The notes under the pieces: generated by a model | Seen by the model: the letters and a program-made list of their open reading frames with translations, nothing else | What the model was told of the DNA's origin: nothing | The model's database searches: none | Shown here: piece by piece, positions 5,281 to 61,117 of the stretch | Numbering within the stretch: position 1 is the stretch's first letter | Layout of the letters: each line of letters begins with the position of its first letter | Position numbers and translations under genes: made by a program | NCBI GenBank assembly: GCA_963745235.1 | Contig: CAVUXE010000009.1 | Coordinates: 187,402-251,401, forward strand | Source of the DNA: an uncultured Spirochaetota bacterium | GTDB taxonomy: Bacteria; Spirochaetota; Spirochaetia; SZUA-6; Fen-1364 | Reading direction: 5' to 3' | Length of the DNA stretch: 64,000 nucleotides

Positions 5281-5295
5281 ATCCTTGTCCCTGGC

Positions 5296-6825: not shown

Positions 6826-8283
6826 CTAGACCCCCAGGAGCATCACGGCGCGCCACAGCGCCCGGTCAAGGAAGCCGGGGATGAAGATTCCCAGAGCCGC
6901 GGAGGCCGCAAGGAGAGAGAGCGGTGCGACAAGGCTGAGGGCGGGCTCGGGGGCGCGCTCGACCGACTGAGCCCCCTGCGCCGTGCGCACCAGGACGGTT
7001 ATCATTCCGGCGAACACGGCGGCCAGGAGAAGAGAAAAAACGACAACGACCGCCCATGACCCCGACTCAACGGCGGCCCGGAGGATCGCGAGCTCGCTGG
7101 CGAACGCTCCGAAGGGTGGAGCACCCAGGATGGCAAAGAAGCCTGCCACCCAGAGGGCTGCGGTCACGGGGACCGCGCGCAGGGCTCCGCGCACATCTGC
7201 GATCCTCTTGGTGCCATACACCGCGAGTATGTTGCCCGCCAGGAGAAAGAGGGATGCCTTGATGAGGGAGTGGTTTACCGCGTGAAAGAGGGCTGCCCAG
7301 TCTCCCAGGCCGCCGAGCCCCACCCCCACAGCCAGGATCCCCATGTGCTCCACGCTGGAGTAGGCGAGCATGCGCTTGTAGTCGGGCTGGCCGATGATGA
7401 GCCCCGCGGCCACGGCCATGGAGACAAGCCCGAAGACCAGGATGGTGTGCCGGCCGAACTGTCCAAGGCCGGCGGCAGCCGTCACGGAAAGGATGCGCAG
7501 GATGGCCAGAAAGGCGCAGTTCAGGAGAGCTCCAGAGAGGAGGGCGGAGACAACGGACGGCGCTTCGCTGTGAGCGTCCGGAAGCCACGTGTGCATGGGA
7601 GCAAGTCCCATTTTCGTTCCATATCCAACAAGCAGGAGGAGGAAGCCGGCCTTGAGCCACCGGGTGTCCAGCCGGGAGGCGTTCGCCACCAGGCTGCTCA
7701 GCGTCATTGAGGTGAGCCCTCCCGCGGGAATGGACGCGGCGAGGAAGTAGGTGCCCAGAAGCGCGAAGGCGATTCCCACCGAGCAGACCAGCAGGTATTT
7801 CCAGGTCGCCTCCAGGGACCGGTGGTGGCGATGGTAGTGGATGAGCGGGGCGCTTGCCAGCGTCGTCCCTTCGATGGCGACCCACAGGAGGCCGAAGTGC
7901 TGGCTCGTGGTGACAAGCGTCATGGTGGAGAGAAACCCCAGCAGGCACGCGGTGAACAGCGCTTCCGGGGTGTTGTCGAAAAGGAACCCTTCCTCGGGGT
8001 CGGCGCGCGTCGTGCCGCTTTCCCTCTTGAGAAAGCTCACGGCTGAAAGGGAAACAGCAAGGAAGAGAAGGCTCGTGATTCCGAGGAATACCTGTCCGAG
8101 GGCGTCCACCGCAAGCCACGCTCCCAGGGGCGGGAACCAGGCGGGATCTATCCACAGCCAGCAGACCAGCGCGGCGTGTGCCGCGGACACAGAGACCAGG
8201 AGCACGCGGCGAACCCGGTCCGAGCGGATGAGGTACGCGGAGACGGCGGCACAGGCGGGCAGCAGCACGAGGATGAGGATCAT
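6826..8283 (-). CDS. HyfF-like proton-conducting membrane subunit
   Basis: Polytopic; EATWKY, GYGTKMGLAPMHTWLPDAHSEAP, KRMLAYSSVEHMG. Confidence 0.9.
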   Translation of the reverse strand: MILILVLLPACAAVSAYLIRSDRVRRVLLVSVSAAHAALVCWLWIDPAWFPPLGAWLAVDALGQVFLGITSLLFLAVSLSAVSFLKRESGTTRADPEEGFLFDNTPEALFTACLLGFLSTMTLVTTSQHFGLLWVAIEGTTLASAPLIHYHRHHRSLEATWKYLLVCSVGIAFALLGTYFLAASIPAGGLTSMTLSSLVANASRLDTRWLKAGFLLLLVGYGTKMGLAPMHTWLPDAHSEAPSVVSALLSGALLNCAFLAILRILSVTAAAGLGQFGRHTILVFGLVSMAVAAGLIIGQPDYKRMLAYSSVEHMGILAVGVGLGGLGDWAALFHAVNHSLIKASLFLLAGNILAVYGTKRIADVRGALRAVPVTAALWVAGFFAILGAPPFGAFASELAILRAAVESGSWAVVVVFSLLLAAVFAGMITVLVRTAQGAQSVERAPEPALSLVAPLSLLAASAALGIFIPGFLDRALWRAVMLLGV

Positions 8284-42164: not shown

Positions 42165-42508
42165 TGCGAATGGATCGCGCCGCGAAGGTCTATCTGGCGG
42201 TAGGGGCCACCGATTTACGCAAGGCGATCAACGGGTTGTCGATACTGGCACAGCAGCAAATGGGACAGGACCCGTTCGGGGGCGGGTATTTCGCATTCAG
42301 CAATAAAGGGCGTAATCGGATCAAGGTTCTGTATTGGGACCGCAATGGGTTCTGTCTCTGGCAGAAACGCTTGGAGCGGGATCGGTTCCGATGGCCAAAG
42401 AACGCGGCGGAGGTGATGGAGCTCGACGGCCGACAGCTGGAATGGTTGCTGGCGGGACTGGATGTAAGGGAAGCACACGCAGAAGTGAAATATTCTCGGG
42501 TAATTTGA
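42161..42508 (+). CDS. tnpB: IS66 TnpB accessory protein
   Basis: TDLRKAINGL, KVLYWDRNGFCLWQKRLE. Confidence 0.95.
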   Translation: MMRMDRAAKVYLAVGATDLRKAINGLSILAQQQMGQDPFGGGYFAFSNKGRNRIKVLYWDRNGFCLWQKRLERDRFRWPKNAAEVMELDGRQLEWLLAGLDVREAHAEVKYSRVI

Positions 42509-42561
42509 GAAAAGTACTTGACCTCCGGGATTTGGACAATGCTACGCATGTGCCCGTGGCG

Positions 42562-43959
42562 ATGACGATGAAGATTGCTGAATTGCCCACGGATGTGAAG
42601 GAACTTCATCATCTGGTCATCGAGCAAAACAAGAAGATACAATTTCTGGAAGAAGAATTGCGCCTTGCCAAGGCGTATCGTTTCGGCCGTTCGGCTGATC
42701 GTGAGATTGAAGACAGGCAGGCACGGCTTTTCAACGAGGCAGAAGACGGAGCAGGACAGAAAAGCGCGCAGTCTCCAAGTGAGCCCCCGATCACCGTGGC
42801 AGCTCACAATAGAAAGAAAGCCGGCCGACGCGCACTGCCGGCGAACCTTCCTCGCGAAGAGATCGTTCACGACCTCCCCGAAGAGCAGAAGGTGTGTGCC
42901 TGCGGGGCTGTGATGAAGCGCATGGGGGAAGAAGTCAACGAACAATTGGAGGTGATCCCCGCCCAGGCGAAGGTCATCCGCCATGTGCGACCCAAGTATG
43001 CATGTCGGGTCTGCCAGGGGGTAGACACCGAGGGTGGTGCGGTGAAGATCGCCCCGCCGGCTGAGCAGTTGATCCCCAAGAGCATCGCCACCCCGGGACT
43101 GCTTGCGTTCTTAATGGTGAACAAGTTTGCTGATGCACTGCCATTTTACCGTCAGGAAAAGATATTCGCCCGCATGGGGGTGGAGCTTTCTCGTACCACG
43201 ATGTGCAGTTGGGCGATGGAGGTGGCCGATCGGTTGAGTCCGCTTCTGCAGTTAATGCGGGATCAGATCCGAGCCGGCCCGTACGTGCAGATCGATGAGA
43301 CGCCGCTTCAGGTATTGGAGGATCCTGGGAGCACCAGCCAGATGTGGGTGTATAGGGGCGGCCAGCCGCATGCACCGACTATTTTCTACGCCTACCATCC
43401 TTCGCGCAGTGGAGACGTGCCATTCGAGTTCCTCAACGGGTATCGGGGATGGGTGCAGACCGACGGGTATGCGGGCTATGACAAATTGGGCAACTGCGAA
43501 GGGGTGGTGATGCTGGGCTGCTGGGCTCATGCTCGACGCAAGTTCGTTGATGTGACCAAGGCAGCCTCGATGGGCTCGGCGGCACATGAGGCGATTGAAT
43601 ACATCCGAAAGCTGTATGCGGTGGAAGCTGATGCTGAGCAGCGTTCACTGGATGAGACACAAAGAGCGGAACTGCGCCGTTCAAAAACGTTGCCGATGCT
43701 GGATGAGTTTCACGGATGGCTGATGAAGCTTCAGGACCAGACACCGCCACAAGGACTGTTGGGCAAGGCGGTCAACTACACCCTTGGACAGTGGGATCGA
43801 CTGGAACGCTATGTCCAGCATGGCATGCTTCGTCCCGACAACAATCTGGCGGAGAACGCCATTCGACCGTTCGTAATTGGAAGAAAGAATTGGCTTTTCA
43901 GTGTGACATCCCGCGGGGCGCAGGCGAGCGCAGCACTCTACAGTGTCATCGAGTCAGCC
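42562..43959 (+). pseudogene. tnpC: IS66 transposase TnpC, 5' part (interrupted after YSVIESA)
   Basis: IDETP, TDGYAGY, CWAHARRKF, DNNLAENAIRP, GRKNWLF. Confidence 0.92.
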
Positions 43960-43979
43960 CTATGCTGAGTTCGGCATAG

Positions 43980-44069
43980 GGCTGACTATGCCGAGCCGCC
44001 AACTATGCCGAGTGGAACCCATTCGGACTGACTTTTGGCGGGTATGATCGTCCCGCGCTCGGCATAGCC
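43980..44069. repeat. RIT left 90-bp inverted repeat
   Basis: Exact reverse complement of 47280-47369; contains ctatgccgag boxes. Confidence 0.95.
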
Positions 44070-44076
44070 AGGCAGG

Positions 44077-45081
44077 TTACAGCGCTCGAAGAAACGCGAG
44101 AAGCTGATCGGGTGGACGGTAGCGGGTCGAGGAAGTACGTCTTGTGGGTGCCACTTTGGCCAAGGCTGCCTCCTTCAGGGCTAAGTTTGCTTCGAGATAA
44201 ACCTGCGTGGTTTCGACGGATTCATGCCCCAACCAGAGGGCGATCACGGAGGTGTCCACACCTGCGCTCAAGAGTTCCATGGCGGCCGTGTGTCTGAGCA
44301 CGTGCGGTGAGATCCGTTTCTGCCTGAGGGAAGGACACCGCAGGCGTGCGGCAGCAGCATGTTTGTTCAGCAGGTACTGGATGGCATCAGGACTGAGTCT
44401 TTCACCGTGGCTCGAAGGGAAGAGAGGCTGGGAGTCCTGTGCAGGAAGCTCTTCGAGCCACGCTCGCAGTGTCGCCGTGCAATGCCGGGTCAGCGGTGTG
44501 CATCGCTCTTTGCGTCCCTTGCCGACGCACCGAACGTGTGCCCCTTTGCCCAGCGTGATGGCCTCACGGTTGATGCTCGCCAACTCGGAGAGACGGAGCC
44601 CGGTCTGAACGGCAAAGAGCAGCAGAGCGTGGTCACGGCGTCCGATCCAAGTGCTCTTGTCTGGTGCGGCAATCAGGGCCTCGATCTCCGGTCGAGTAAG
44701 AAACGGAATCAGTGCGCGCGTGTGCCGTTTCGCTGGTATGGCCAGTACACGTTGGATGTGAGCGCTGTGCGCCGGCTCCTCGTAGGCGGCAAAGTGGAAG
44801 AACGAGCGGATGGCAGTCAGACGGAGGTTTCGTGTCCGGGCTGTGACAGAACGCCGTTTTTCGAGGTCATCGAGGAACGCACTGACCATGGGCGCGTCGA
44901 TGTCCCCAAGCGAGAGGCTCGACGGTTGCTTATGCAATCGAAGCTCTGCGAATCGGAACAGCAAGCGGAACGTATCCCGGTAGGAGGCGATGGTGTGAGG
45001 GCTGACTCGGCGTTGATTCATGAGCCGCTCCACAAAGAAGCGTTCGATCAGAGCCGACATGAGGGGGCTGGTGGAGTTCAT
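44077..45081 (-). CDS. Tyrosine recombinase RitC
   Basis: TGLRLSEL, GKGRKER, HVLRH, LGHES..TTQVY. Confidence 0.93.
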   Translation of the reverse strand: MNSTSPLMSALIERFFVERLMNQRRVSPHTIASYRDTFRLLFRFAELRLHKQPSSLSLGDIDAPMVSAFLDDLEKRRSVTARTRNLRLTAIRSFFHFAAYEEPAHSAHIQRVLAIPAKRHTRALIPFLTRPEIEALIAAPDKSTWIGRRDHALLLFAVQTGLRLSELASINREAITLGKGAHVRCVGKGRKERCTPLTRHCTATLRAWLEELPAQDSQPLFPSSHGERLSPDAIQYLLNKHAAAARLRCPSLRQKRISPHVLRHTAAMELLSAGVDTSVIALWLGHESVETTQVYLEANLALKEAALAKVAPTRRTSSTRYRPPDQLLAFLRAL

Positions 45082-46004
45082 TGTGGCCTCCCCCAGGAGT
45101 CCTCCAGTTTTTGGACTGCATGGCCCATGAGTTCAGGACAGGCCGACAAGTACCAGTACGTGTCCCGCACACAGCTGTGCCCCATATAGGTCGATAGCAC
45201 CGGGAGAAGGAGATCCACATTGCGGCCCTGGCGGTACCACCGCACGAGCGTTTCGACGGCGAAGCGGTGGCGGAAGTCGTGTAGGCGGGGTCCAACAGGG
45301 GCTTGAGGGTCTCGAAGGCCGATCTGGCGGGAGAGCCTCAGAAACACCCGGTAGACGTACTGGGGCAAGAGCTTACCGCCACGTTCAGCGACGAGGAAGT
45401 AAGGACTCCGTGGCGGACAGAGCAGCCTGTCACGGCGATCGGCATAATGAACCAAGACACGCAGCGAACTCGGGTGGATCGGCACCAAACGCGTCTTGCC
45501 GAACTTCGTTGCGCGAATGGTCAGCACGCCCTCTTTCAGGTCGGCATCCTCAGAACGGAGCGCCAGTGCCTCGCCCAGTCTGAGCCCACTGACGGCGAGC
45601 AGGCCAAACAGACAGTGATAGGTCCATGGGCGCAGGCCATCGGTCGGAGTCAGGGCGAGCGTGGCCTCCAGAAGGGCTCGAACCTCTTGCTTCGTATAGA
45701 GATAGGGTTTTGCTCGAGAGAGCCCCGGGAGCATACCCGTTGGTGGGACTTCGGTTCGTGGATCGACGCTTTGCAGGTAGCGGGCGAAACCGCGAACGTC
45801 TGTTAGACGCAACGTCCAGGTCGAATGCCGGCCTTGGGGTTGAGTTGCCCACTCCAGGGCAAGCTTGCGCGTGATGAACGCTGCATCTCGTGTCCGCATG
45901 AAGCGAACGAAATCCGTCAGTCGCTCCTCTTGATGGTGGAACTTGTAGCCAAACCCACGGCGCATGGCGACGTAGGATCGAAGGGCCGATGCGAGTACGT
46001 TCAT
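45078..46004 (-). CDS. Tyrosine recombinase RitB
   Basis: SGLRLGEA, TKFGKTR, HDFRHRFA, YMGH...TYWYL. Confidence 0.93.
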   Translation of the reverse strand: MNVLASALRSYVAMRRGFGYKFHHQEERLTDFVRFMRTRDAAFITRKLALEWATQPQGRHSTWTLRLTDVRGFARYLQSVDPRTEVPPTGMLPGLSRAKPYLYTKQEVRALLEATLALTPTDGLRPWTYHCLFGLLAVSGLRLGEALALRSEDADLKEGVLTIRATKFGKTRLVPIHPSSLRVLVHYADRRDRLLCPPRSPYFLVAERGGKLLPQYVYRVFLRLSRQIGLRDPQAPVGPRLHDFRHRFAVETLVRWYRQGRNVDLLLPVLSTYMGHSCVRDTYWYLSACPELMGHAVQKLEDSWGRPQ

Positions 46005-47240
46005 CGCGTCCCTCCCGGCCACGGCTGTGCGAGGCTCCGCAGGGACGCAAGATCCACCTTCGCGTAGATACGGGTCGTGTCGTGCTTCTGGTGGCGAAGG
46101 ACTTGGCCAATCTCGGTGAGGGATGCCCCGGCTCTCAGAAGCCGAGTTGCCAAGCTATGACGGAAAAGGTGGGCCCCGCGGTGGGCGACCCGTTCTACGC
46201 CGGCCCGCCTGAGAGCCGCCTTGGCTACCTGCGAGATCATCGAGGAGGATGTGAACCCCCGGTGCGGCGCCAGGTGACGGAGGAATACATGACGACAACT
46301 GCAACGAGGCCGACCATGCTGCAGGTAGTCCGCGATAGCAGCCCCGACCTCCATGGGCAACGGCATTGTCGCGCTGCGACCGCCCTTGCCATGGACAGTC
46401 AGTCGTCCTGATCCCCAATCGATGTCCTCCAAGCACAACAGACGAATCTCGTTCGCCCGTAATCCGATGCGAGCGAGCAACAGCAGGATCGCATAGTCCC
46501 GGCGCCCCACCGGCTGGCTGCGGTCACTTCCGGCTGAGAACATTCTCGATCTCTGTCGCCTCGAGGAACGACGGCAGCGTTGCCAATCGCCACCTCCTGA
46601 TCGTTGGTACGCTGCCGGTCATGTCCAAGCAGACGTCACCGCGGTACTGCAGGTAGCGAAGCAAGGATCGAAGGGTCCAGCACATCATCTGAGCTGACCG
46701 AGGACTCTGATCGTTGACGTGCCGTTCGACGAACCGTGTGACGTCTGTGGCTTCCAAGCGTGATAGGGAGCCCTCGGCATCCGCGCATTCCTTCAAGAAC
46801 AGGCGGACGATTCGCCGGTGACGGATGGCGGACACTCGGGCGAGCCCACATTCTCGACGTAGGTGCTCGAGGAAAGCCTCCTCTTGCTGTTCCAGAGGTC
46901 CCAGAGGCGCAGGATGAGGGGGAAGGATTACGTGCGCTTCTCTCAGAACCGAAAGAAGCCTTAGAAGCGCAGGCCGGTCACCCCCAAGCGGACATCGGTA
47001 TCGGGCACGGAACCTCTGGTAGGCATCCACGGTTCGCTCATCGATGTCGTGGAGATCCAGATCACGGCGAGCGAGCCAGTGGCTGAAATCACAGACAACA
47101 GCCAGATTCCTCCATGCACTTTGCCGGCTGTGGCCTTCCTCAAGAAGTCGATCCGCGAACAGGTCGACGTGAGGACCGAGCGGCCCCTCGCGCATCCGTC
47201 GCAGTTTAATAGGAAAAACGAAGTAAGCGTCTATACCCAT
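46001..47240 (-). CDS. Tyrosine recombinase RitA, frameshifted near 46530
   Basis: GPLGPHVD N-terminus; GLRANEI, HLFRHSLAT, LRH....TRIY. Confidence 0.88.
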
Positions 47241-47279
47241 GTTCTCTCCTCCGCCACAAACGTGGTAGAGAGAACATCA

Positions 47280-47369
47280 GGCTATGCCGAGCGCGGGACG
47301 ATCATACCCGCCAAAAGTCAGTCCGAATGGGTTCCACTCGGCATAGTTGGCGGCTCGGCATAGTCAGCC
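47280..47369. repeat. RIT right 90-bp inverted repeat
   Basis: Exact reverse complement of 43980-44069. Confidence 0.95.
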
Positions 47370-47507
47370 AAAGCAAACCGCCACGAGCCCTACTGGTATC
47401 TGCGGTTTTTGTTTGAAGGATTGATTTCAGCCAGGACTGCCGAACAATTTGCCGCCCTGCTTCCTCAGAACATCGATCCCAAGACGCTCCGGCCCGTCGC
47501 AAAGTAG
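47370..47507 (+). pseudogene. tnpC: IS66 TnpC 3' part
   Basis: KANRHEPYWYLRFLFE...ALLP* continues ESA in frame once the RIT is removed. Confidence 0.9.
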
Positions 47508-47711
47508 CAGGCGGTTTCTCGGGCGCTTACGAACTTCGGGTAGAATGCCGTCACCCCGCTGCCCCGGTGGGCAGCATGTTTCGGCGGCGCTCACCGCTCC
47601 CTCGACTCACTGCCAGGGCTGCCCTCGATTTTCGGACGGGGCTCCTTGGGGGGGAGTCATGCGCTCAGGGGCTGGCGCGATTCGCTTGAAATGCTGTTTC
47701 CCGCTTCTGCA

Positions 47712-47777
47712 CTACAGTACGTCAACCGGGCTCGTAACGCCCAGCTTGTTCCTGGACGCAACGTGCGTGTAGATCAT
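47712..47777 (-). pseudogene. intI: Displaced 3' end of the integron integrase, carrying the catalytic Tyr
   Basis: Minus-strand translation MIYTHVASRNKLGVTSPVDVL*, the typical IntI C-terminus. Confidence 0.9.
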
Positions 47778-49050
47778 CGTCTGGGCTTGATAATCCTATG
47801 TCAGATAACCCGTCGCCTGGCTAGCTACGACGAAGGGTTATGATCACGTTCCCGCGTCGACGTGGGGGAGCACTACCGCCGCATTAAACCGCGACCCTTT
47901 GCTCCTTCAAGGACCGGTGACCCCAACAATTGCAATGCCAAGAAGGCCGGACCCCGCGGCAAACGGTGAACCACCTATCGTGGAAAGTGCGCCGGTGCTT
48001 GCGTTGATCTTGTAGGCAGATATGCTATTTCCTGACTGGTTTGTAACGTAGAGGAACTTCCCAGTTGGGTCTACCGCGATTGAATCGGGTCCCTTCCCCG
48101 CAGTGAACGGAGAACCGCCTATTGCAGAGAGTGCGCCGGTGCTCGGATTGATGATGTAGGCAGAGATGTTTGCGCTGCCATTGTTTGCAACGTAGAGGAA
48201 CTTGCCTGTCGGGTCTACAGCAACAGAATAAGGGCCCGACCCGGCCTTGAAGGGCGTTCCGCTTATAGCTGACAGCACTCCGCTGCTTGAGTTAATCCTG
48301 TAGGCGAAGATGTTGCCGCCACCGTAGTTCGTGACGTACAGGAACTTGCCTATTGGATCGACAACGACACCTTCGGGGTATGGCCCTCCGGCAGGGAAAG
48401 GTGAGCCCCTTATCGCAGAGAGCGCCCCGGTGCTGGGCATGATCGTGTACGCCGAGACTCTACCGCTATAATTGTTTTCGACGTAGAGGAACTTTCCCTT
48501 CGGATGTACCGTCATCATTGTGGGGTTCATCCCTGAAGGGAAGGGCGATCCATTCACCGCTGTAAGACTTCCGCCGCTCGGGTTGATTGCGTACGCAGAC
48601 ACGCTCTTGTAAGCGCCATTCGTGATGTAGAGGAACTTCCCCGTTGGCTCTGCGACGATACCATTTGGGCCTGACACTGCGAAAGGCGAGCCGTTTACTG
48701 CCGTAAGCGCCCCGGTGTTGGGGTCAATCATGTAGGCAGACACGCAGGCGCTCACCGTGTTTGTAACGTAGAGGAAGTACCGTTTTGTCTGTGCATCCGT
48801 CGAAGCCGCCATGAGGACCGCAAGAACCGCTACTACGACAATTCCCTTTTTCACTTTATTTTCCTCCTTGGCACCTTGTCATCTGCGCGACCAACGCCGA
48901 CTCGCGCTCATTTCACTTTGGGCTGTAGATGCCTTCGGAAGCTGTATTGAACTCAGCCAGTTACGATTGTACTATGGCCTTTGTTATCTGCAATATGCCA
49001 GCCATGATCTATTGATTCCGATCCCATGGTGTGCCACCCGCTCCACAGCT
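47778..49050. mobile_element. 1.27-kb transposase-less insertion within intI
   Basis: Removing it and one AT copy (47776-77 or 49051-52) restores LGHADVSTT-MIYTH in frame. Confidence 0.8.
47907..48854 (-). CDS. Secreted lactonase-like beta-propeller repeat protein
   Basis: Signal peptide; about six repeats of DPTGKFLYV.N......SAY.IN.STGAL..I.GSPF. Confidence 0.88.
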   Translation of the reverse strand: MKKGIVVVAVLAVLMAASTDAQTKRYFLYVTNTVSACVSAYMIDPNTGALTAVNGSPFAVSGPNGIVAEPTGKFLYITNGAYKSVSAYAINPSGGSLTAVNGSPFPSGMNPTMMTVHPKGKFLYVENNYSGRVSAYTIMPSTGALSAIRGSPFPAGGPYPEGVVVDPIGKFLYVTNYGGGNIFAYRINSSSGVLSAISGTPFKAGSGPYSVAVDPTGKFLYVANNGSANISAYIINPSTGALSAIGGSPFTAGKGPDSIAVDPTGKFLYVTNQSGNSISAYKINASTGALSTIGGSPFAAGSGLLGIAIVGVTGP

Positions 49051-50336
49051 ATGGTGGTCGACACATCCGCGTGTCCGAGCAACTCCTGAATGGTCCGTAT
49101 GTCGTACCCGCGTTCAATCAAGTGCGTCGCGAAGCTGTGCCGCAGCGTGTGAATGCTTGCGTGTTTCGGGATGCCCGCCGCGCGCAACGCATCCCGAAAC
49201 GCCTTCTGGAGTGTCGTCGGATACACATGAAAGCGCCGAACCGTCCGCGACATCGGATCCATAGACAGATTCCCTGACGGGAAGACCCAATACCAGCCCC
49301 ACTCGCGACTTGCATTCGAGAACTTCCTGCCCAATGCGCCGGGGATGGCTACTCCGTCCACGCCCTTCTTTTGATCCTGGTTGTAGAGGGCGTTGACTTT
49401 CAACAGGTGATGACGAATCTCCTCGGTGATCTTTTCCGGCAGGACCGTCTCCCGGTCCTTGTTCCCCTTTCCCGCTCTGATAGTCAGGCAGTTTCTTTCG
49501 AAGTCGATGTCTTTCACGCGCAGGGTGAGACATTCTTCCAATCTCAGACCGCCCCCATAGATCAGGCGGACCATAAGAAGATAGGTCCCCTGCATGCCAG
49601 AGAAAACTCTTGAAATCTCCTGCCTGGTGAGCACGACAGGGAGCCTCTTGGGGACCCGAGACGGCACAACCGTGGACAGGCCGTTGATCTCTATTCCCAG
49701 GATGTTGCGGTAGAGGAAAAGGATGGCATTGAACGCGAGCCTCTGGGTTGCTGCCGCGACACTCTTTTCCACGGCAAGGAAGGAAAGAAAGCTCTTCAAG
49801 TCCTGCTCCGAAAGATCGTTGCATGTCTTCGATCCAAGAAAGGACCTGAACTGCCGCATCCAGGAAAGGTACGCCTTCTCCGTCCTGAGCGAGAGATGCT
49901 TCAGCCGCATGAGCTGCACCAACTCCTGTTCGAGGCGGCTCCAACTCGAAAACAGCCGTCTGCGCACTTGCGTGGCCCTCGCGTTCTTTGCGTCAACCCG
50001 AGGCTGGTCACCGGCCGCGGGCCCCGGGCGGAAACTGTGAGGGTCGAATCGCTGCGCCTCGCAGCCAGCGGTCGCTTCGTACCGGATCTCGCGAGCCTTC
50101 GGATCGCCGCACCGCGCCCTGTAGTAGGAGTACAGTTGCAGAGCTCTCTGTGCCTGCTGGACCTGCCATTTCGGGTAGCTTCCAGCGAGCCAACGCAGGA
50201 AGTAGGCCAAGGACTGATTGTCGACCGTCTCCCGCTTGGTAATACTTCGGTATGTACTTGCCCAAAGGTGGTACACCTGGCGAAGAGGTTGCTCAACCCT
50301 GTTGTGCTCGGCCAGAAAGTCTGCAAACGACTGCAT
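49051..50336 (-). pseudogene. intI: Integron integrase IntI, 5' part (interrupted)
   Basis: GGGLRLEEC, GKGNKDR, IntI-specific insertion EWGWYWVFPS, HTLRHSFATHL, LGHADVSTT; divergent from attI and the cassettes. Confidence 0.93.
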
Positions 50337-50469
50337 AACTCACCCACCTTCTGTATTAGGCACCTGCTCCATAACAAGACGTGGGAGATTGCTGTGCTGC
50401 TTGCAGGGGGAGCAGAAACCGCTCTGGAGCCCCCGCCGCCTAACACGCCCGACCAGGGCCTTATAGACA

Positions 50470-50492
50470 ACTCGCTAATATGGTTGTTACAC
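50470..50492 (+). other. attI recombination site (core G|TTACAC at 50486)
   Basis: Identity between cassette 1 and its copy (cassette 9) begins exactly at gttacac; no attC upstream. Confidence 0.8.
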
Positions 50493-51158
50493 GCACGCAA
50501 ATTGTTCTGAGAAAGCCCCCGTGGTTGGAGTATTGTTTGCTGGCTTGAGATTTTGAAAGTTGGGCGGAGAACGGGCCGGCAGGGATTTCCTATCAAAGAA
50601 GGCTGGTGGTGATTGCTTCAAGGCAGTTCGCCGCCGAAGGCTTGGCTGATCGAAGTGGTACTTGATGACGCAGACAAGCAGGGGCGATAGCTGAGTTACA
50701 CTACGCACCGGCCCTTCGGACCAGCACAGGTTCGCTGGAAGCAGGTGGCGATTGCTTCAAGGCAACTGGCTTGCGAAGGTTTGGTTGATCGTAACGGTAT
50801 CTGAAGAGGCAACAGAGTGTGGAGATAGATGGGTTCCATACGGTCTGGTCCAAAGGGCCGGCAGGGATCGATTGCAACAAGGGAGTCCGCCGCGGAGGGT
50901 TGGCTGATTGTAGAGGTGCTTGAAGGCGCAGACAAGCAGAGGAGATAGCTGGGCTCCACCACGAACCGGCCCGTGAAGAGAAGATTCGTAGTGCTGGCGA
51001 CCTTTCCACACCATGCTGCAGGAAGAAGGCACCCAGCACTAGGCGTCCGTGTAACAAATCGTTGAAGCCGACCCCTTAACGGCTGCCTTATACTGAGGCA
51101 CAGGTTTGGTAAGAGCCGCCGCCGCTGGGCTGATGCGGCGGGGCGGCTTAACTCTATG
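50487..51158 (+). other. Cassette 1: gene-less cassette with three degenerate tandem repeats
   Basis: No sense-strand ORF of 60 aa or more; about 99% identical to 57356-58026. Confidence 0.8.
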
Positions 51159-51164
51159 TTATGA
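51049..51164 (+). other. attC1
   Basis: gtgtaac...gttgaagccgacccc...ggggcggcttaac...gttatga. Confidence 0.9.
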
Positions 51165-51309
51165 CCACTCAAGATCGGTCCTTGGCGTTTGTGAGTCTTT
51201 TCAAGCGGCGGAGGGGACGGGCGTCAGGCATCCCTGCCTGACTAACCCGCCCCTCCGGCAAGTCTTTGGGCTCTCCACGACTTGGTTGCAAACGCACCGT
51301 CGCATTCGC

Positions 51310-51339
51310 TTGACGAAGGTTAACAAATAAGTGAACCTT
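51310..51339 (+). promoter_or_regulatory. Toxin-antitoxin promoter/operator
   Basis: TTGACG followed by the imperfect palindrome aaggttaac-aaataa-gtgaacctt just before the ATG. Confidence 0.5.
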
Positions 51340-51343
51340 AACC

Positions 51344-51703
51344 ATGGGACGGTCGCTCGTCTTCTACAAGACTGAGAAAGGACAGTGTCCGGTAGTCAAG
51401 TTCCTTGATTCTTTACCCTCAAAGGCCGCCCAGAAAGTGACGTGGGTACTGAAGCTGCTCCAAGAACTGGACGCAGTTCCTGGGCAGTACTTCAAGAAGC
51501 TGACTGCGAGCGACGAGATATGGGAGTGTCGCGTCGTCTTCGGTGGAAACACTTATCGGATCCTGGGCTTCTTTCACGGGAGAGACCGGTTGGTTCTGAC
51601 CCATGGTTTCATGAAGAAGACGCCGAAAACGCCTATTGAAGAAATCAGGCAAGCCGAACGGCTAAAGGCTGATCACATAGGGAGGCACGGACGTGCGGGA
51701 TGA
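51344..51703 (+). CDS. RelE/ParE-family (gp49-like) toxin, cassette 2
   Basis: FY.T.KG.CPV..FL, IWECR, LVLTHGFMKKT.KTP..EI. Confidence 0.9.
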   Translation: MGRSLVFYKTEKGQCPVVKFLDSLPSKAAQKVTWVLKLLQELDAVPGQYFKKLTASDEIWECRVVFGGNTYRILGFFHGRDRLVLTHGFMKKTPKTPIEEIRQAERLKADHIGRHGRAG

Positions 51704-51972
51704 TCTTAGACAAATACATAACCCAGCGGAAGAAAAGCGACAAGCGCTTCGCAAAGGGATTCGATGCTGGCTACCAAGAGTTCAAGATAGGCTACCTTCT
51801 CCGCAGTGCTCGACAGAAGAGCGGCGTCACTCAGGACGAACTTGCACGGCGGCTCCGGACGTCAAAGAGCGCAATTTCTAGAATTGAAAACCATGCTGAG
51901 GACATTCGGGTATCGACCCTCAAGAAGGTAGCGGAGGCACTCGGCAAGGAGCTGCGGATAGCCATCTCATGA
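51700..51972 (+). CDS. Xre HTH antitoxin, cassette 2
   Basis: TQDELARRLRTSKSAISRIEN; overlaps the toxin stop; start possibly frameshifted. Confidence 0.88.
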   Translation: MILDKYITQRKKSDKRFAKGFDAGYQEFKIGYLLRSARQKSGVTQDELARRLRTSKSAISRIENHAEDIRVSTLKKVAEALGKELRIAIS

Positions 51973-52097
51973 GGATCCTGGGTGCGCTTCCTCGCGGCGA
52001 ATGACGGCGGTGAACACGCCCTCGCCTTCCTTGGCTCGGGCGCCTGAATCCTCAGAGTGGCTCGCTGTACTGGTAGGGCCAGTCTGAACGGGAGTAG

Positions 52098-52213
52098 TCA
52101 TAACAAGTCGTTGAAGCCGACCCCTACACGGCCGGCTTGTAGTGGGGCACAGGATTGGGAAAAGCCGTCGCGGCCGGGTTGATGCGGCGGGGCGGCTTAA
52201 CTCTATGTTAGAT
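52098..52213 (+). other. attC2
   Basis: tcataac...gttagat; same family as attC1. Confidence 0.9.
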
Positions 52214-52303
52214 TGTTCTGTGGTTCTTTCGTGTACCGCTTTGCATGAACATGAGGAACCTGATATTTTGTCAAATTCTGTAAGGGACGGGATCCGCCGC
52301 TAG

Positions 52304-52789
52304 ATGCTATCACTGCAAGAGACTGAACCAGACTTTCCCGCAGATGGGGATGATTTGTATGGCAGTCGACGAAGGGGGAACCTTGTGAACTTCTATTTTC
52401 TTCTCGCGGGCATATTTCTGATATTCTTTTCAGCGGTACATGCCGTTTTCGGAGAACTGACAGTCTTCCGTCCTATCTTTCAAACTAACATCGATTCCTT
52501 GCTGAAGATAAGCGTCTATATTCCTTGGCACCAACTAACATTCGTGCTGCTCCTGTCGGGTATTGTACAATTAGCCGCGGCCTTTCGGCCAAGACTGAAG
52601 GCCTTACCGCCGTTCATTCTTGCGATCTTACTCGGCAACATTGTCATCTTTGTTGCTATCGCGGTGTTCCAAAGAAATTGGTATGTCTTGCAGAACTCAA
52701 TCCCTCAGTACGTACTGTTTGCGATCATTCTGGTATTCACTGTGCTGGGCATTCGGAGACATGCAGTTCAACCGAAAGCAGAATCCTAA
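52304..52789 (+). CDS. Hypothetical four-TM membrane protein, cassette 3
   Basis: Hydrophobic ORF between attC2 and attC3; real start may be GTG at 52385. Confidence 0.7.
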   Translation: MLSLQETEPDFPADGDDLYGSRRRGNLVNFYFLLAGIFLIFFSAVHAVFGELTVFRPIFQTNIDSLLKISVYIPWHQLTFVLLLSGIVQLAAAFRPRLKALPPFILAILLGNIVIFVAIAVFQRNWYVLQNSIPQYVLFAIILVFTVLGIRRHAVQPKAES

Positions 52790-52992
52790 GAGACAAAGTG
52801 CGAACCATTGGTCCAAATAAGGTGGAAAAAGGCAATGTGGCAGGTGGGGGTAAAGGCGGCCGAGGAGAAGACTGCACAGTGGTAACTGGGGCGCGCACAA
52901 AAATGGGAAAGGGTGTGCTTGCGGCATATACATTACATAGGTCAGAACGCACTGCACTAACAACATCATGGAGACAATTGACATCGGGAACA

Positions 52993-53108
52993 ATCTAACA
53001 AATCGTTGCAGTTGTCGCCTGGAAGGCTGTCCGGATCGGCGAATGCAGTTCGGAAATCGATCCATGGCCGATGTTGATGCGGCGGCGCAACTGAACTCTA
53101 TGTTAGAG
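52993..53108 (+). other. attC3
   Basis: atctaac...gttgcagttgtcgcc...ggcgcaactgaac...gttagag. Confidence 0.9.
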
Positions 53109-53158
53109 CGCTTTAGAAAAAGGGCTTTGCACGTAGACGTTGTTGCCCGTAATAGTCC

Positions 53159-53187
53159 TTGACAATAGTATCGGTAAGTGTTAGTAT
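53159..53187 (+). promoter_or_regulatory. higBA promoter
   Basis: TTGACA, 17 bp, TAGTAT, ending 5 bp before the ATG (probably a leaderless mRNA). Confidence 0.7.
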
Positions 53188-53192
53188 ATCCT

Positions 53193-53477
53193 ATGATTCG
53201 TTCTTTCGGAACGAAGGACACAGCCAGCATTTGGCTTGGTATCCAAATCAAACGGTATCCGAAGGAACTGCAGGCGCTTGCCAGGCGGAAGTTGCGTATG
53301 CTCAACAACGCAACGGAATTGATAGACCTTATACTACCGCCTGGTAATAGACTGGAAATGCTCAAAGGGGACAGGAAGGGCCAGCACAGCATACGGATCA
53401 ATGACAGAGTCCGGATCTGTTTCGTTTGGAAGGATGGTGATTGCCATGAAGTCGAAATCATCGACTATCACTCATAA
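53193..53477 (+). CDS. higB: HigB toxin, cassette 4
   Basis: MIRSF, PPGNRLEMLKGDRKGQHSIRIND, VEIIDYH. Confidence 0.93.
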   Translation: MIRSFGTKDTASIWLGIQIKRYPKELQALARRKLRMLNNATELIDLILPPGNRLEMLKGDRKGQHSIRINDRVRICFVWKDGDCHEVEIIDYHS

Positions 53478-53796
53478 AAGGATAGCTGTCGGGAGGCTCC
53501 CGAATATCCACCCAGGGGAAGTACTACAAGAAGAATTTCTTAAGCCTATGGGAATTAGTGCCTATAAACTTGCAAAAGAGACAAACCTCTCGCAGACGCG
53601 AATTTCTGAAATTATTCATCGTCGCAGGGGCATCACTGCTGAAACAGCGCTACGATTTTCTAAGTTTTTCGGGAACACCGCAGAATTCTGGCTTGGTCTG
53701 CAAAATGACTACGATCTTGAAGAGAATAGACTTTCTCTAAGGAAGGAACTGGAAGCAATAAGAAGTATGGCCGAACTGAAAGCCGCAAATGGCTGA
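53446..53796 (+). CDS. higA: HigA antitoxin, cassette 4
   Basis: IHPGEVLQEEFLKP, ITAETALR, FWLGLQ; start uncertain. Confidence 0.9.
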   Translation: MKSKSSTITHKRIAVGRLPNIHPGEVLQEEFLKPMGISAYKLAKETNLSQTRISEIIHRRRGITAETALRFSKFFGNTAEFWLGLQNDYDLEENRLSLRKELEAIRSMAELKAANG

Positions 53797-53853
53797 AACA
53801 GAGGCTCTGACAAAGGCGATGTTCACCGAATAATGAAAAACAAAAGGGAAGCG

Positions 53854-53969
53854 CTCTAACAAGTCGTTGCAGTTGTCCCCTAAAAGGCCGCCTGGAACGG
53901 CGAATGCAGTCTGGCAATTCCGCTTAGTGTAGTGTTGATGCGGCGGGGCAACTGAACTCTATGTTACAT
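53854..53969 (+). other. attC4
   Basis: ctctaac...gttacat. Confidence 0.9.
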
Positions 53970-54544
53970 CTCCCGAGGTCTCATCGGGGACAAAAGCGTT
54001 CGTCCCTTTCTGAAGATTGCTCTGGGAAGTGTTGGCGTCCTGAAAGCGAATGGCGCGGGTTTTCTCTTTGGGGGCTACTATGGTTTGGCTGGCGCTTCAG
54101 TGGTACATGCCGAAAAGGGTGGCTGCGGAAGGGGCGGTTTGTAGATTCCATTCGCTGAGAACCCGCACCTGGTAGGAGAAAGTGCTGCAAGGAGAGAGAT
54201 CGTTGGGATGGGCGGGAAGAGGGCTGGCGTGATGATAATGGCGGGGCAAGGGTTGGGTAAGGAAGAGTTGCCAAAGGCACAAACAACAGCCATCGGCGGG
54301 AGTCGACGAGCAGGTGCAGTGCAGAAGTGACCCGGGGATATTCTAGAGGCTACGCCGACAGAGGAGATGAAGGGACGGTTGATGCGGTGAAAGAAGCAGT
54401 GAGGAATCGGCCCCGCCGCCGTGTCGGGGGAGATGTAACAAGTCGTTGAAGCCGACCCCTTAGCTTACGCGCGGAAAGTGGAACTCACGTTCCGTAGGAA
54501 GGGTCGCCGCTGGGCGCAGGTCGGCGGGGCGGCTTAACTCTGTG
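53964..54544 (+). other. Cassette 5: gene-less, purine-rich cassette
   Basis: Bounded by attC4 and attC5; no convincing ORF. Confidence 0.7.
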
Positions 54545-54550
54545 TTATAT
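54433..54550 (+). other. attC5
   Basis: atgtaac...gttatat. Confidence 0.88.
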
Positions 54551-54580
54551 GGCGGTAAATTGGTTAAGGAGGCGTGGTAG

Positions 54581-55219
54581 GTGGAAGCGCGAAAAGCAAT
54601 GCACGCAAAAAGGCTCCAAGATGCTCTCTCGCAGATTCCTTCGCTGCTATCTGACGACGTCAACGTCTTTTCCAGTGAGTTTGAAACCTGGCAAGAACGC
54701 ACATTGCAGAGCCTGTCAGAGTTGTTCCAAAAGGACGGTGGATACACTCGTCGCTTCACTGTCCTAAGATTCTGGCACGCGAGAGTTTCGATTGGCCGTG
54801 GTCATACGTGGACCGGTGACGATCAAGAATTGTATGAATCCGACATGAAGTTGGCAAAGCAGATACTGATTGATGCTCTTGAGGAGCTACAACTCGTTCC
54901 CGAACCAAGCGCTCCCTACAAGGCGCCCCCGGCAACCGTGCCGCAGGTGGTCCTCAATGTGACGAATGTGCTATCCCAAATGACTGATATCAAGATCGAA
55001 AATGTCATCAACAGGATAGATTCTTTGCCCATGACGCCGGTCGAAAAGGAACAGGTCAAAAAGGCCGCAATCGACCTCAATGAAGAAGCGAACGGCCCGC
55101 AGCGCTGGCCTGTCCTGGCCAAACTTGTGGATGCTGTAAGAAGCATTGGGGCCGTTGCCTACAAAGAGGTTGCTATTCCTCTACTGCTGGAAATGCTAAA
55201 GAAGCAGGCAGGCCTATAG
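54581..55219 (+). CDS. Hypothetical protein, cassette 6
   Basis: RBS aaggagg; ORF fills the cassette. Confidence 0.75.
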   Translation: MEARKAMHAKRLQDALSQIPSLLSDDVNVFSSEFETWQERTLQSLSELFQKDGGYTRRFTVLRFWHARVSIGRGHTWTGDDQELYESDMKLAKQILIDALEELQLVPEPSAPYKAPPATVPQVVLNVTNVLSQMTDIKIENVINRIDSLPMTPVEKEQVKKAAIDLNEEANGPQRWPVLAKLVDAVRSIGAVAYKEVAIPLLLEMLKKQAGL

Positions 55220-55278
55220 CAGGCAATTGACGCCTGGGGAAACGCTGGTAAGTTCCAACGGTATTCTGAAAGGCCGCC

Positions 55279-55396
55279 ATATAACAAATCGTTGCAGTCA
55301 TGACCGCCGAGATTCAGCCTGTTTAGAAGGAACGCCGTCTGACGAACCGCTACCTGATCGTCTGATTCGGGGCGGCAACTGAACTCTATGTTAGAA
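55279..55396 (+). other. attC6
   Basis: atataac...gttagaa. Confidence 0.88.
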
Positions 55397-55450
55397 CGCC
55401 ATATTCTTGCTGAATAGGGCCTCCAGTATGTTTCGGAAGGAAGTTGCGTC

Positions 55451-56316
55451 TTGGACATAAAATGGCCCCAGTCCACAAACAAGGGCACCGCTCTTCTCAA
55501 GCTGGTGCATCAGTTTGACCCAAGACGCATTCTCATTGACGAGTATGTGGGCTGGTTTTTCGACCACCATACAATCGAAACCGCCGCGAAAATGTTACCT
55601 GACAAGGTCTCCGTCAGCAAGGAAGAAGATAAGGAGTTTTCGCGAATTGCTTACTACTATTCCATTCTCCGAGAGATATATATCGATGAATGGATCAGTT
55701 CCTCTATCAGATCTGGGTGTCGACAGCTTCTCCTCCTTGGTGCAGGCTACGATACTGAGGTTTCTACGACTGCCGGTGATTGCTGACCGTTTCGTTGATA
55801 CCTACGAAGTCGATCTTCCTAAAGCCATTGCGGATAAAATCGCAACTCTAGGAAGCTCATCTCGATCTTCTACCGAACGGACTTCATTTTGTTCCCCTTG
55901 ATTTCAATCGAGATAGCTTGGCCGTGATCACAGAGCATGGATTCAATCCCTTTGTCCCGACCTCGTACGTCTGGCAAGGGGTTAGCTACTATCTACCCCG
56001 GAAGTCGGTCATGGAAGTACTGGATTTCATTCAACGACATATGTCGCAAGGGTCAACCCTTGTGTTTGACTGTTGTTCTGTATTCATGACGTATGTAAAT
56101 AGCAAAGTACCTGGCATAAGGGTTCAGATTGAAAGGCTTAAGAAGATCAACGAACCGTACCTATTTGGAATAGAATCTACCGAGCTTAAACAACTGCTCG
56201 CTGAGAAAGGGTTCAAAGACATACGCATTCAAACGCAAGCGGAATTGGAACACTTGATAATGAAAATCAGAACTCTCCCAGAGAATATGTGGTACGTTGT
56301 CACGGCGACGGCATGA
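55451..56316 (+). CDS. Leucine-carboxyl-methyltransferase-like SAM-dependent methyltransferase, cassette 7, frameshifted
   Basis: QLLLLGAGYDT, YEVDLP, WQGVSYYL and EPYLFG spread over three frames. Confidence 0.8.
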
Positions 56317-57245: not shown

Positions 57246-57361
57246 GCATAACAAGTCGTTGAAGCCGACCCCTTAACGTCCGGCTTGTAGTGGGGCACAG
57301 GATTGGAAAAAGCCGTCGCGGCCGGGTTGATGCGGCGGGGCGGCTTAACTCTATGTTACAC
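57246..57361 (+). other. attC8
   Basis: gcataac...gttacac; interior identical to attC7. Confidence 0.9.
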
Positions 57362-58026
57362 GCACGCAAATTGTTCTGAGAAAGCCCCGTGGTTGGAGTA
57401 TTGTTTGCTGGCTTGAGATTTTGAAAGTTGGGCGGAGAACGGGCCGGCAGGGATTTCCTATCAAAGAAGGCTGGTGGTGATTGCTTCAAGGCAGTTCGCC
57501 GCCGAAGGCTTGGCTGATCGAAGTGGTACTTGATGACGCAGACAAGCAGGGGCGATAGCTGAGTTACACTACGCACCTGCCCCTCGGACCAGCACAGGTT
57601 CGCTGGAAGCAGGTGGCGATTGCTTCAAGGCAACTGGCTTGCGAAGGTTTGATTGATCGTAACGGTATCTGAAGAGGCAACAGAGTGTGGAGATAGATGG
57701 GTTCCATACGGTCTGGTCCAAAGGGCCGGGAGGGATCGATTGCAACAAGGGAGTCCGCCGCGGAGGGTTGGCTGATTGTAGAGGTGCTTGAAGGCGCAGA
57801 CAAGCAGAGGAGATAGCTGGGCTCCACCACGAACCGGCCCGTGAGGAGAAGATTCGTAGTGCTGGCGACCTTTCCACACCATGCTGCAGGAAGAAGGCAC
57901 CCAGCACTAGGCGTCCGTGTAACAAATCGTTGAAGCCGACCCCTTAACGGCTGCCTTATACTGAGGCACAGGTTTGGTAAGAGCCGCCGCCGCTGGGTTG
58001 ATGCGGCGGGGCGGCTTAACTCTATG
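57356..58026 (+). repeat. Cassette 9: second copy of gene-less cassette 1
   Basis: Direct alignment to 50487-51158 with about 7 differences. Confidence 0.93.
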
Positions 58027-58032
58027 TTAGAT
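57917..58032 (+). other. attC9
   Basis: gtgtaac...gttagat; copy of attC1. Confidence 0.9.
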
Positions 58033-59815: not shown

Positions 59816-60925
59816 TTGAGGCTCGCCAAATTTCCGGACAAGGAATTTCTTTTGTGGCATAATATTCTCTATGGAGAGGGGAAAAAAGAGGCTCGAGAAG
59901 TTGCGGAAACGCCGCCAGAAAGCGGTCGTCCTTTTCGAGCAGGGTGAGCGGCAGTGCAGCGTCGCTCAGCATTTGCGGGTCAGTCGCCAAAGCGTGAGCG
60001 AGTGGTGGCTGGCATGGCACAACGGGGATACAAAGGCGTTGAACGGCGCAACGCGGGCTGGCAGAAAGCCCCGATTGGACGAGGAACAATTGGCGCTGGT
60101 GGAGAAGGAACTTCTTCGTGGGGCTACCGCCCATGGATGGGAAACAGAGTTGTGGTCGCTGCCCCGCGTAGCGAAGCTCATCAATAGCGTCACCGGGGTG
60201 AGCTATCACCCTGGTCATGTGTGGAAAATCTTGCGTCAGATGAATTGGAGTCTGCAACGACCGACGCTGAGGGCCAAGGAACGAGATGAGGAAAAGATCC
60301 GTCAGTGGAAGATTCGGACCTGGGAAGAGCAAAAAAAAACTCCAAAATCTTCCGTGCATGGGTAGTTTTCCTCGATGAAAGTGGCCTTTCTCAGAAACCT
60401 CCCGTGAGACGGACTTGGGCGCCGCGAGGCAAGACACCCGTGCTTCGGCATTGCTTCAATTGGAAGAAGCTGTCCATCTGCTCGGCGATCGGCTACCGAT
60501 GGGACGGGAAGCAGTGTCGGTTATTCTTTCGCATTGTTCCCGACAGCTATGACTCCGAAAAGCTCATAGATTTTGTTTCCCAGCTTCGCAGAGAGTTCCA
60601 TGGCAGGAAAGTCATCCTTATCTGGGACGGCCTGCCGGCCCACCGCAGCCGCCTGATGACTGAGTATCTGACGCAGCAGAGCAAATGGTTGACAGTGGTA
60701 CGCCTACCTCCCTATGCCCCTGAGCTGAACCCCGTCGAGGGAGTCTGGGGGAACATAGAGGGGCAGGAACTCGCAAACCGATGCTCGGATGATCTGGGAG
60801 GAATGGTAAAGGGAGTGCGTGATGGCTTTACCCGCGTCCGTTCCCAAAGCTGGCTCCCGCTTTCCTTTCTAAAACACGCGGGACTTTCCTTTGGCTAAAC
60901 CGTCATCATTTTATGCGAGGCTCAA
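59816..60925 (+). mobile_element. IS630-family insertion sequence
   Basis: TA duplication (59814-15, 60926-27); IRs ttgaggctcgc and gcgaggctcaa. Confidence 0.92.
59871..60898 (+). CDS. IS630 transposase in two ORFs joined by a probable -1 frameshift at A9 (60331-39)
   Basis: HTH ORF followed by DDE ORF: FLDESG, IWDGLPAH, LPPYAPELNPVE. Confidence 0.9.
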
Positions 60926-61117
60926 TAAGTGGTCTCCTGGTTCGATGGAGTGTCGTCGTTGTGATTCGCTTCGCGCTGGTGATTCGGCGGCGCAACTCAA
61001 CTCTATGTTATGTGGTTCTATGGGCCGATCCGCAGGGTAATCCCTCGCGTTTCCCGGCGCCTTGGCGCATAGCCCTTCCCAGATGTGCACTCGTCGTGTA
61101 CAAGAAGGCGTCAGACG

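Follow-up and report, generated by a model that had tools for sequence, protein, structure and literature searches.

Integron integrase genes interrupted just before the catalytic tyrosine codon: a recurrent breakpoint and candidate insertion hot spot

Integron integrases drive cassette capture, and how natural populations turn them off is poorly known. This question is raised by a locus in a 64,000-nt stretch of DNA (hereafter the window), which forms the terminal 64 kb of contig C9 in an assembly resembling a metagenome-assembled genome (MAG; 104 contigs, 85.7% complete, 5.9% contamination). In the window, an integron integrase gene, intI, is split just ahead of the codon for its catalytic tyrosine by a 1,275-bp insert with a single gene. 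What made this split, and is its position a preferred one? We found the same nucleotide broken in other integrase genes and tentatively propose that it is an attB-like hot spot, where the insert was taken up through conservative recombination, with a crossover of 2 bp and an enzyme acting in trans. We regard this proposal as quite possible, if still short of probable.

The body of intI, delimited by open reading frame (ORF) translation and profile matches, occupies 49053..50336 on the minus strand and comprises 428 codons ending ...LGHADVSTT. Its displaced 3' tail, MIYTHVASRNKLGVTSPVDVL and stop, which contains the catalytic-Tyr motif, was recognized by reverse-complement translation at 47712..47777, also on the minus strand. 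The minus-strand ORF 48984-50336 reads ...IQELLGHADVSTT and then continues into 22 unrelated residues, IAVERVAHHGIGINRSWLAYCR and stop. Body and tail are parted by exactly 1,275 bp, with target bases neither lost nor gained. On the plus strand, the junctions are ...gtagatcAT/cgtctggg...cacagctAT/ggtggtcgac (here and below, a slash within a sequence marks the break), where AT is the sole identity between them and the flanks are otherwise unrelated. The ORF is an integron integrase by TIGR02249 (372.4 bits vs a cut-off of 265), with additional matches to PF00589 and PF13495; it departs from the family after ...STT and does not hold the complete catalytic set, which includes the C-terminal Tyr of ..IYTH... 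Same-genus relatives showed what is missing: ...DVSTTMIYTHVA(T/S)(R/K)NKLGV.SP.D.L. was present in 9 of 11 loci by regular expression, and one of the two unmatched loci (L014) is nevertheless intact. Of the 31 strong matches (E<=1e-100) obtained across the order, 30 extended to residue 447-449 of 449. Besides, four intact 449-aa alleles (P0121-P0124) are ~99% identical to the window intI and have an identical tail, as does the intact allele P0002; in the assembly, the tail sequence is single. On the established chemistry of tyrosine recombinases and the motif alignment, the split IntI is predicted to be incapable of catalysis because its Tyr-bearing tail has been removed. A search of the 85.7%-complete assembly gave no further full-length intI, and since neither of its two intI copies (the second is described below) keeps an in-frame tyrosine tail, cassette shuffling must rely on an enzyme from elsewhere. 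A preliminary description of this DNA had placed the split after ...LGHADVSTT and the tail at 47712-47777, had noted AT at both junctions and a frame restored by removing 1,275 bp, and had concluded that the split gene cannot shuffle cassettes. The translations of both parts, the intact alleles and the Tyr chemistry with the motif alignment agree with it on these points.

To what extent the interruption is real could be judged from contigs of four public soil or sediment runs, which were compared with window 43500-51500. A 331-nt contig of run X1 crosses the left junction (47532-47862, 1 mismatch), and at the right junction a Logan-assembled protein, P0125, has the identical 22-residue read-through. 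In the soil run X2, a 286-nt contig links 47775 to 49051 and skips 1,275 nt, which corresponds to the empty site; two bases fit either side, and 47576-47775 is covered without mismatch. A weak joint from 47781 to 49123 (sides of 18-21 nt) and the portions of the interval with no contig on them were not counted as evidence. The insertion is real and polymorphic. An assembly artefact or chimeric contig might be suspected in a MAG-like assembly of 104 contigs with 5.9% contamination, yet misassembly is excluded because independent contigs and proteins of other runs cross both junctions; besides, the tail brings the frame back exactly, and we consider the probability of an artefact negligible. Thus, of the checks suggested in the preliminary description, the search for junction-spanning sequences refuted misassembly (X1 contig and P0125), and the search for an empty site was answered by the X2 contig. 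This empty allele could equally well be ancestral, and excision is not demonstrated by it.

The assembly itself provided a second case. Contig C5 (L001) has another intI body with attI; 1,443 nt match the window copy at 99.7% identity, and the match starts at the same nucleotide and ends at the attI crossover. This copy, which also has a 1-nt frameshift, breaks at ...ACCACCAT/ACTTAACG into unrelated DNA, and its junction reads ...GTCGACCACC AT/ACTTAACGAATAG.... Past 94 nt from the junction, C5 consists of lower-GC DNA with two 47-nt direct repeats (6719-6765 and 6963-7009) located upstream of a gene (5016-6632) for a 538-aa protein. A lead from the ESM-Atlas suggests that the latter is a replication protein similar to archaeo-eukaryotic primases (AEP) and RepB primases and that the region is like a plasmid-type replicon. 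Homologues of this protein with 89% and 55% protein identity were found in two genomes of the genus, not inside intI, and one of them adjoins ssb. Homology of the primase-like replicon ends 94 nt short of the junction, and a search of the same genome and of 92 genomes from the order gave no second copy of this 94-nt terminus; a degenerate scan for termini of the C5 type gave one chance match only.

About nine further sequences, from metagenome IntI proteins and other genomes, were found at the breakpoint besides those of the window and C5. Among 226 IntI proteins in hand, which were enriched by choice of clusters and whose counts are therefore not a frequency, 11 read TT/I... and 3 read TTM... 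into unrelated sequence, and 204 were intact. Three of the 120 best cluster representatives, unselected for breaks, were broken right after ...DVSTT (P0001, P0016 and P0024). The window insert has the read-through IAVERV... One family of ends comprises ILYESAI, ILYESTI, IINESLI and the ILNE*LI* of C5; other read-throughs at the breakpoint are IPLISL.. and IPLTFT.., IPYGFLV, MILSNILCPT.. and MVCEQILCPT.., and MIKRTL... The ILYESAI/IINESLI/ILNE*LI end family is shared by at least four IntI lineages, whose mutual identity is only 55-60%. The read-through of P0127 had no match in this assembly by tblastn. No recurrent break at any other intI position was seen among the proteins examined, and in 10 intact relatives the target site showed no conserved or significant hairpin fold. 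A pattern scan of one genome per species, restricted to ATH, gave 43 matches, mostly natural TTI(I)YTH variants or small frameshifts, and added three DNA junctions. In L122, a deltaproteobacterial intI is followed by an 18-bp perfect hairpin and a gene for a secreted trypsin-like protease. L131, from a Vicinamibacterales genome, consists of an integrase fragment of ~40 nt located after ftsX, and L135 is a ~90-nt fragment of a different integrase family after ridA in a Lachnospiraceae genome. Altogether, 5 of 5 DNA junctions read AT/A (three of them from the ATH-restricted search), and the next gene was co-oriented with the integrase gene in each of the five. These data support the site specificity claimed in the preliminary description, because the same nucleotide is broken in the C5 copy and by several unrelated sequences elsewhere; its suggestion to look for other intI genes split at the same codon was also fruitful (C5, metagenome IntI proteins). 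In the literature, at the level of titles and abstracts, we found no description of such a single-nucleotide intI hot spot.

With regard to L131 and L135, we also observed that both fragments end exactly at the same codon boundary, followed by ATA, and lie between unrelated host genes. They could be att-site relics or captured flanks.

Which enzyme might act at such a site? One of the broken proteins, P0167, offers a clue: its IntI part, ...STTM, continues into a serine-recombinase catalytic domain (PF00239, 40 bits vs a cut-off of 23). Over 143 residues, this domain shares 62% identity with residues 9-151 of a protein of 543 aa (P0228), which has Resolvase and Recombinase domains and is a large serine recombinase (LSR). 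It follows from the position of this match that the LSR gene begins ~75 nt past the junction, on the same strand. Judging from the domain match, at least one insert family at the site comes with a serine integrase of its own. In serine recombinases, strand exchange takes place at a central dinucleotide of 2 bp, with no further identity needed, and a 2-bp crossover with unrelated flanks, the signature of these enzymes, is seen at both window junctions.

In the mechanism that we propose, the hot spot would be a single phosphodiester of integron-integrase genes, the one that directly follows ...ACN ACN AT, between the codons for TT and those for MIYTH. A circular or excised 1,275-bp DNA with a complete transcription unit (promoter, secreted beta-propeller gene and hairpin) would serve as donor and would be joined into intI by conservative recombination, with AT as the 2-bp crossover. 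Catalysis would be provided in trans, with an LSR as the best candidate, and the outcome would be an IntI deprived of its tyrosine nucleophile, a cassette array that is frozen, and an added gene in the same orientation as intI. We infer that an LSR-type enzyme made the insertion in the window and that the insert came as a circle. This reading is favored because the AT junctions are clean, with no target loss; because the same nucleotide recurs as breakpoint with distinct sequences, one end family occurring in at least four IntI lineages; because P0167 carries an LSR gene abutting the same site; because the next gene is co-oriented in 5/5 DNA cases; and because the assembly encodes five Recombinase-domain proteins.

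What, then, is the inserted DNA? According to the X2 contig junction, the insert spans 47778..49052 (47776-49050 is equally valid owing to the shared AT), is read on the minus strand and is single copy in the genome. Its gene (47907..48854, minus strand, as intI) encodes a 315-aa, secreted-type, 7-bladed beta-propeller of the lactonase family (PF10282 Lactonase, E 9e-43) with a GTG start, an AAGGAGG ribosome-binding site and a signal-peptide-like N-terminus; internal 144-nt repeats of the insert are the propeller blades. A putative sigma-70 promoter (TTGCAG, 16 nt, TACAAT) was located at 48966..48993 on the minus strand. Downstream of the ORF, 27 nt inside the tail-side end, there is an imperfect hairpin, ATAACCCGTCG...CGAAGGGTTAT (47805..47841), which is possibly a terminator. 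Profile searches matched no recombinase or transposase family in the insert, and no recombinase gene of the Resolvase plus Recombinase type is present in its 1,275 bp; the earlier statement that it encodes only a secreted beta-propeller and no recombinase was correct. The closest relative found, the metagenome gene L027, is located in a housekeeping context (e.g., with a SpoU-type methylase) and shows ~80% DNA and 70% protein identity. Homology with this chromosomal gene, in which the promoter boxes TTGCAG-16 nt-TACAAT are retained, spans the ORF and ~117 nt upstream and excludes the outer ~81 nt (5') and ~129 nt (3') of the insert, the hairpin being located in the non-homologous 3' part.

Several kinds of elements were considered for the insert, and by the following criteria it is not recognizable as any of them. 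A self-splicing intron or structured RNA is opposed by the lack of Rfam matches (0 at E<=1 in window 44000-56000 and in C5 1-8600). An insertion sequence (IS) or miniature inverted-repeat transposable element is opposed by the single copy, an AT of only 2 bp in common and the lack of terminal repeats: the insert has no terminal inverted or direct repeats, only propeller repeats and short chance pairs. As for an integron cassette, the insert starts ATAGCT and ends CAGACG, with no TTRRRY start and no attC at the junction. Separately, we observed that the start of the insert ORF (window 48784-48872) is a signal-peptide and ribosome-binding-site stretch which, with 75-86% DNA identity, begins many otherwise different genes genus-wide. 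Its conservation suggests a shared secretion leader module.

A number of observations weigh against site-specific recombination as the origin of the split. The insert core looks like an ordinary native-type chromosomal gene. The insert ends were searched for in the same genome (blastn, word size 9), in 25 family genomes and in 80 metagenome loci with genes for proteins related to that of the insert, and no copy was found; these searches yielded only ORF paralogues (64-71% identical) and the conserved signal-peptide and ribosome-binding-site stretch (75-86%). The two ends are not similar to each other, the ends of five inserts at the site are not similar either, and neither dyad symmetry nor likeness to the target arms was detected at the insert ends. 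The other breakpoint cases are known from the body-side junction alone and belong for the most part to a single IntI clade. The site was not broken in 42 intI-bearing genomes of a 401-genome phylum sample, in 30 of the 31 strong order-level matches, or in 80 viral-contig loci, where three long matches were neighbouring second integrases. The hot-spot insertion is uncommon, because it was unseen in the phylum-sample, order and viral-contig surveys. Part of the recurrence could also come from homologous recombination in the conserved 3' part of intI, not from new insertions. With regard to the enzyme, a homologue of the P0167 recombinase was not found in this assembly by tblastn, and AT is a palindromic dinucleotide, usually avoided by natural LSR sites. 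A pattern scan of viral contigs gave 0 matches. One claim of the preliminary description is not supported: it had treated the block as a defined non-autonomous element, but the ends are unique, lack terminal repeats and are unlike those of other inserts at the site, and the longer relatives with the same ends that it anticipated were absent from the genome, the 25 family genomes and the 80 metagenome loci.

The main rival to site-specific recombination is capture by end joining, in which a recurrently broken site (e.g., after abortive cleavage by a recombinase or nuclease) would receive a stray chromosomal fragment, ligated by Ku/LigD-type or microhomology joining, and AT would be a filled-in 2-nt stagger or microhomology. 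Consistent with this idea, the assembly includes a Ku gene, the inserted DNAs show no relationship to one another or to the target, and the window insert is single copy, has unique ends and resembles an ordinary chromosomal transcription unit. However, the target was perfectly kept at both junctions, AT/A was found in 5/5 DNA junctions (including the three from the ATH-restricted search), and the gene orientation was identical in 5/5 cases; moreover, the presence of one end family in at least four lineages and of one insert with its own integrase points to dedicated elements and not to random filler. We consider end joining rather unlikely, and more doubtful than recombination at a hot spot. 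A true non-autonomous transposable element, with short cis ends around a captured host gene and its transposase elsewhere, appears less likely again. Either an HUH/rolling-circle type, with insertion between A and T, or a transposase that duplicates 2 bp could be imagined: the L027 homology leaves out ~81 nt on the 5' side and ~129 nt on the 3' side of the insert, a subterminal hairpin is present, the plus-strand block 5'-TC...TA-3' is inserted in A/T, the genome has IS91-family Y2 and IS200-type Y1 transposases, and the short integrase fragments L131 and L135 end at the site, as flank capture would give. This model is opposed by the absence of a second copy of either end wherever searched (genome, 25 family genomes and 80 metagenome loci), by the lack of terminal repeats and by the resident IS91-like (TTGTAC...CCTAAT) and IS630-like (TA/TTGAGGC) ends, which are unlike the insert ends.

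It has been reported that IntI can insert cassettes outside att sites, at attG sites which require 5'-G/WT (Loot et al., preprint 10.1101/2022.09.11.507474). IntI itself might thus have put a cassette at a secondary, attG-type site in its own gene, and the insert, with one ORF and a hairpin whose CATAAC...GTTAT boxes are like the R''/R' boxes of the array, has some appearance of a cassette. However, the site reads C/AT on either strand and not G/WT, the hairpin covers only ~42 nt vs the ~120-nt attC of the array and is located 27-30 nt inside the end, off the junction, and the insert does not start with TTRRRY. We rejected both the cassette and attG models on the basis of the G/WT rule, hairpin size and position, and the missing TTRRRY, and regard self-insertion by IntI as very improbable.

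The surroundings of the split gene are those of an integron. The attI region (50337..50486) extends up to the G/TTAC crossover, and identity with the C5 copy stops at 50491. By repeat comparison, a cassette array on the plus strand with ~120-nt attC sites (..TAACAARTCGTTG....CTCTATGTTA) follows from 50487 to the contig end (64000). We counted 12 or more attC-like repeats (pattern ..TAACAA....CTCTATGTTA), the ~120-nt sites being located at cassette junctions, and platform and array together define an integron. According to Pfam, the cassettes contain toxin-antitoxin types (Gp49/HTH and PIN), Abi_C, unknown genes and an IS630-like insertion, and no resistance gene was seen among them. The first cassette after attI (50485-51161) recurs at 57354-58029 in the same array (99% identical); the C5 integron has an identical attI and a different first cassette. 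The IS630-family element (helix-turn-helix and DDE_3 domains; window 59816-60928) has the ends TTGAGGCTCGC...GCGAGGCTCAA and a TA duplication and sits inside an attC site; a 99% copy was found on contig C44.

Other mobile elements were observed on the far side of intI and elsewhere in the assembly. Window 43980-47369 is a 3.4-kb element bounded by perfect terminal inverted repeats of 90 bp. With its three tyrosine-recombinase genes in tandem, one of them frameshifted at ~46536, it resembles a 'recombinase in trio' (RIT) element. It splits an IS66-family transposase gene (42334-43968, resuming 47380-47507), and its empty site was seen in contigs of runs X2, X3 and X8, which link 43951/43954 to 47362/47365. 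Two 90%-identical copies of a 2.6-kb IS91-family element are present on contigs C8 (41047-43613) and C31 (10091-12683), each with a tyrosine-recombinase gene upstream of the Y2 transposase and a terminal hairpin followed by CCTAAT. Genes of the IS200 and IS110 types were also located in the assembly.

If the breakpoint is indeed an attB-like hot spot, a broader picture can be drawn, which we consider possible but rather doubtful. A guild of mobile DNAs would home to the codon boundary that immediately precedes the catalytic tyrosine in integron integrases, perhaps also in other tyrosine recombinases, and would include LSR-bearing elements, the recurrent family with conserved termini and recombinase-less single-gene inserts. 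Such 'integrase-killing' DNAs would freeze arrays, have their cargo read through from the promoter of intI and be removable by the cognate integrase with a directionality factor. A single-nucleotide hot spot would then be a specific and possibly reversible means of disabling an integron, one mobile system would parasitize the catalytic motif of another, and environmental bacteria would contain a ready-made attB/LSR pair. For the window itself, the practical outcome is a frozen integron with an added gene for a secreted beta-propeller.

How does this locus compare with known systems? LSR elements integrate inside conserved genes, as exemplified by the attB sites of phages and of integrative conjugative elements and by the skin/SPbeta-type intervening elements of Bacillus. 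The present cases share with them a coding sequence precisely cut at one dinucleotide, no duplication beyond 2 bp and heterogeneous cargo, and one insert at this site has an LSR gene beside the junction; they differ in that the window insert has no recombinase or recognizable attP arms and that the target is the integrase of another element. In Vibrio cholerae, PLE satellites use an LSR to enter the attC repeats of an integron. Both there and here, part of an integron is the landing site of a mobile element via a serine integrase (in our case proposed), whereas the target here is the intI coding sequence and not attC, the integron's enzyme is destroyed, and the hosts are environmental and apparently Spirochaetia-like by names of closest homologues. 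An SSV-type archaeal integrase gene is partitioned on integration, and here too a site-specific event divided a tyrosine-recombinase gene into an N and a C part, with the system trapped; however, the SSV int gene holds attP and its N and C parts flank the element outward, whereas in the window foreign DNA lies between the two parts. The attG insertions (Loot et al., preprint 10.1101/2022.09.11.507474) resemble the present one in being recombinase-less single-gene inserts outside attI and attC, and differ by the G/WT rule, from which the C/AT site here departs, and by the lack of an attC at our junction. Finally, degenerate intI genes of sedentary chromosomal integrons also represent inactive integrases beside large arrays, but the damage described for them (e.g., PMC2426708) consists of scattered frameshifts, stops and IS hits, and our literature searches, at the level of titles and abstracts, gave no common hot spot, whereas the breaks compared here share a single nucleotide.

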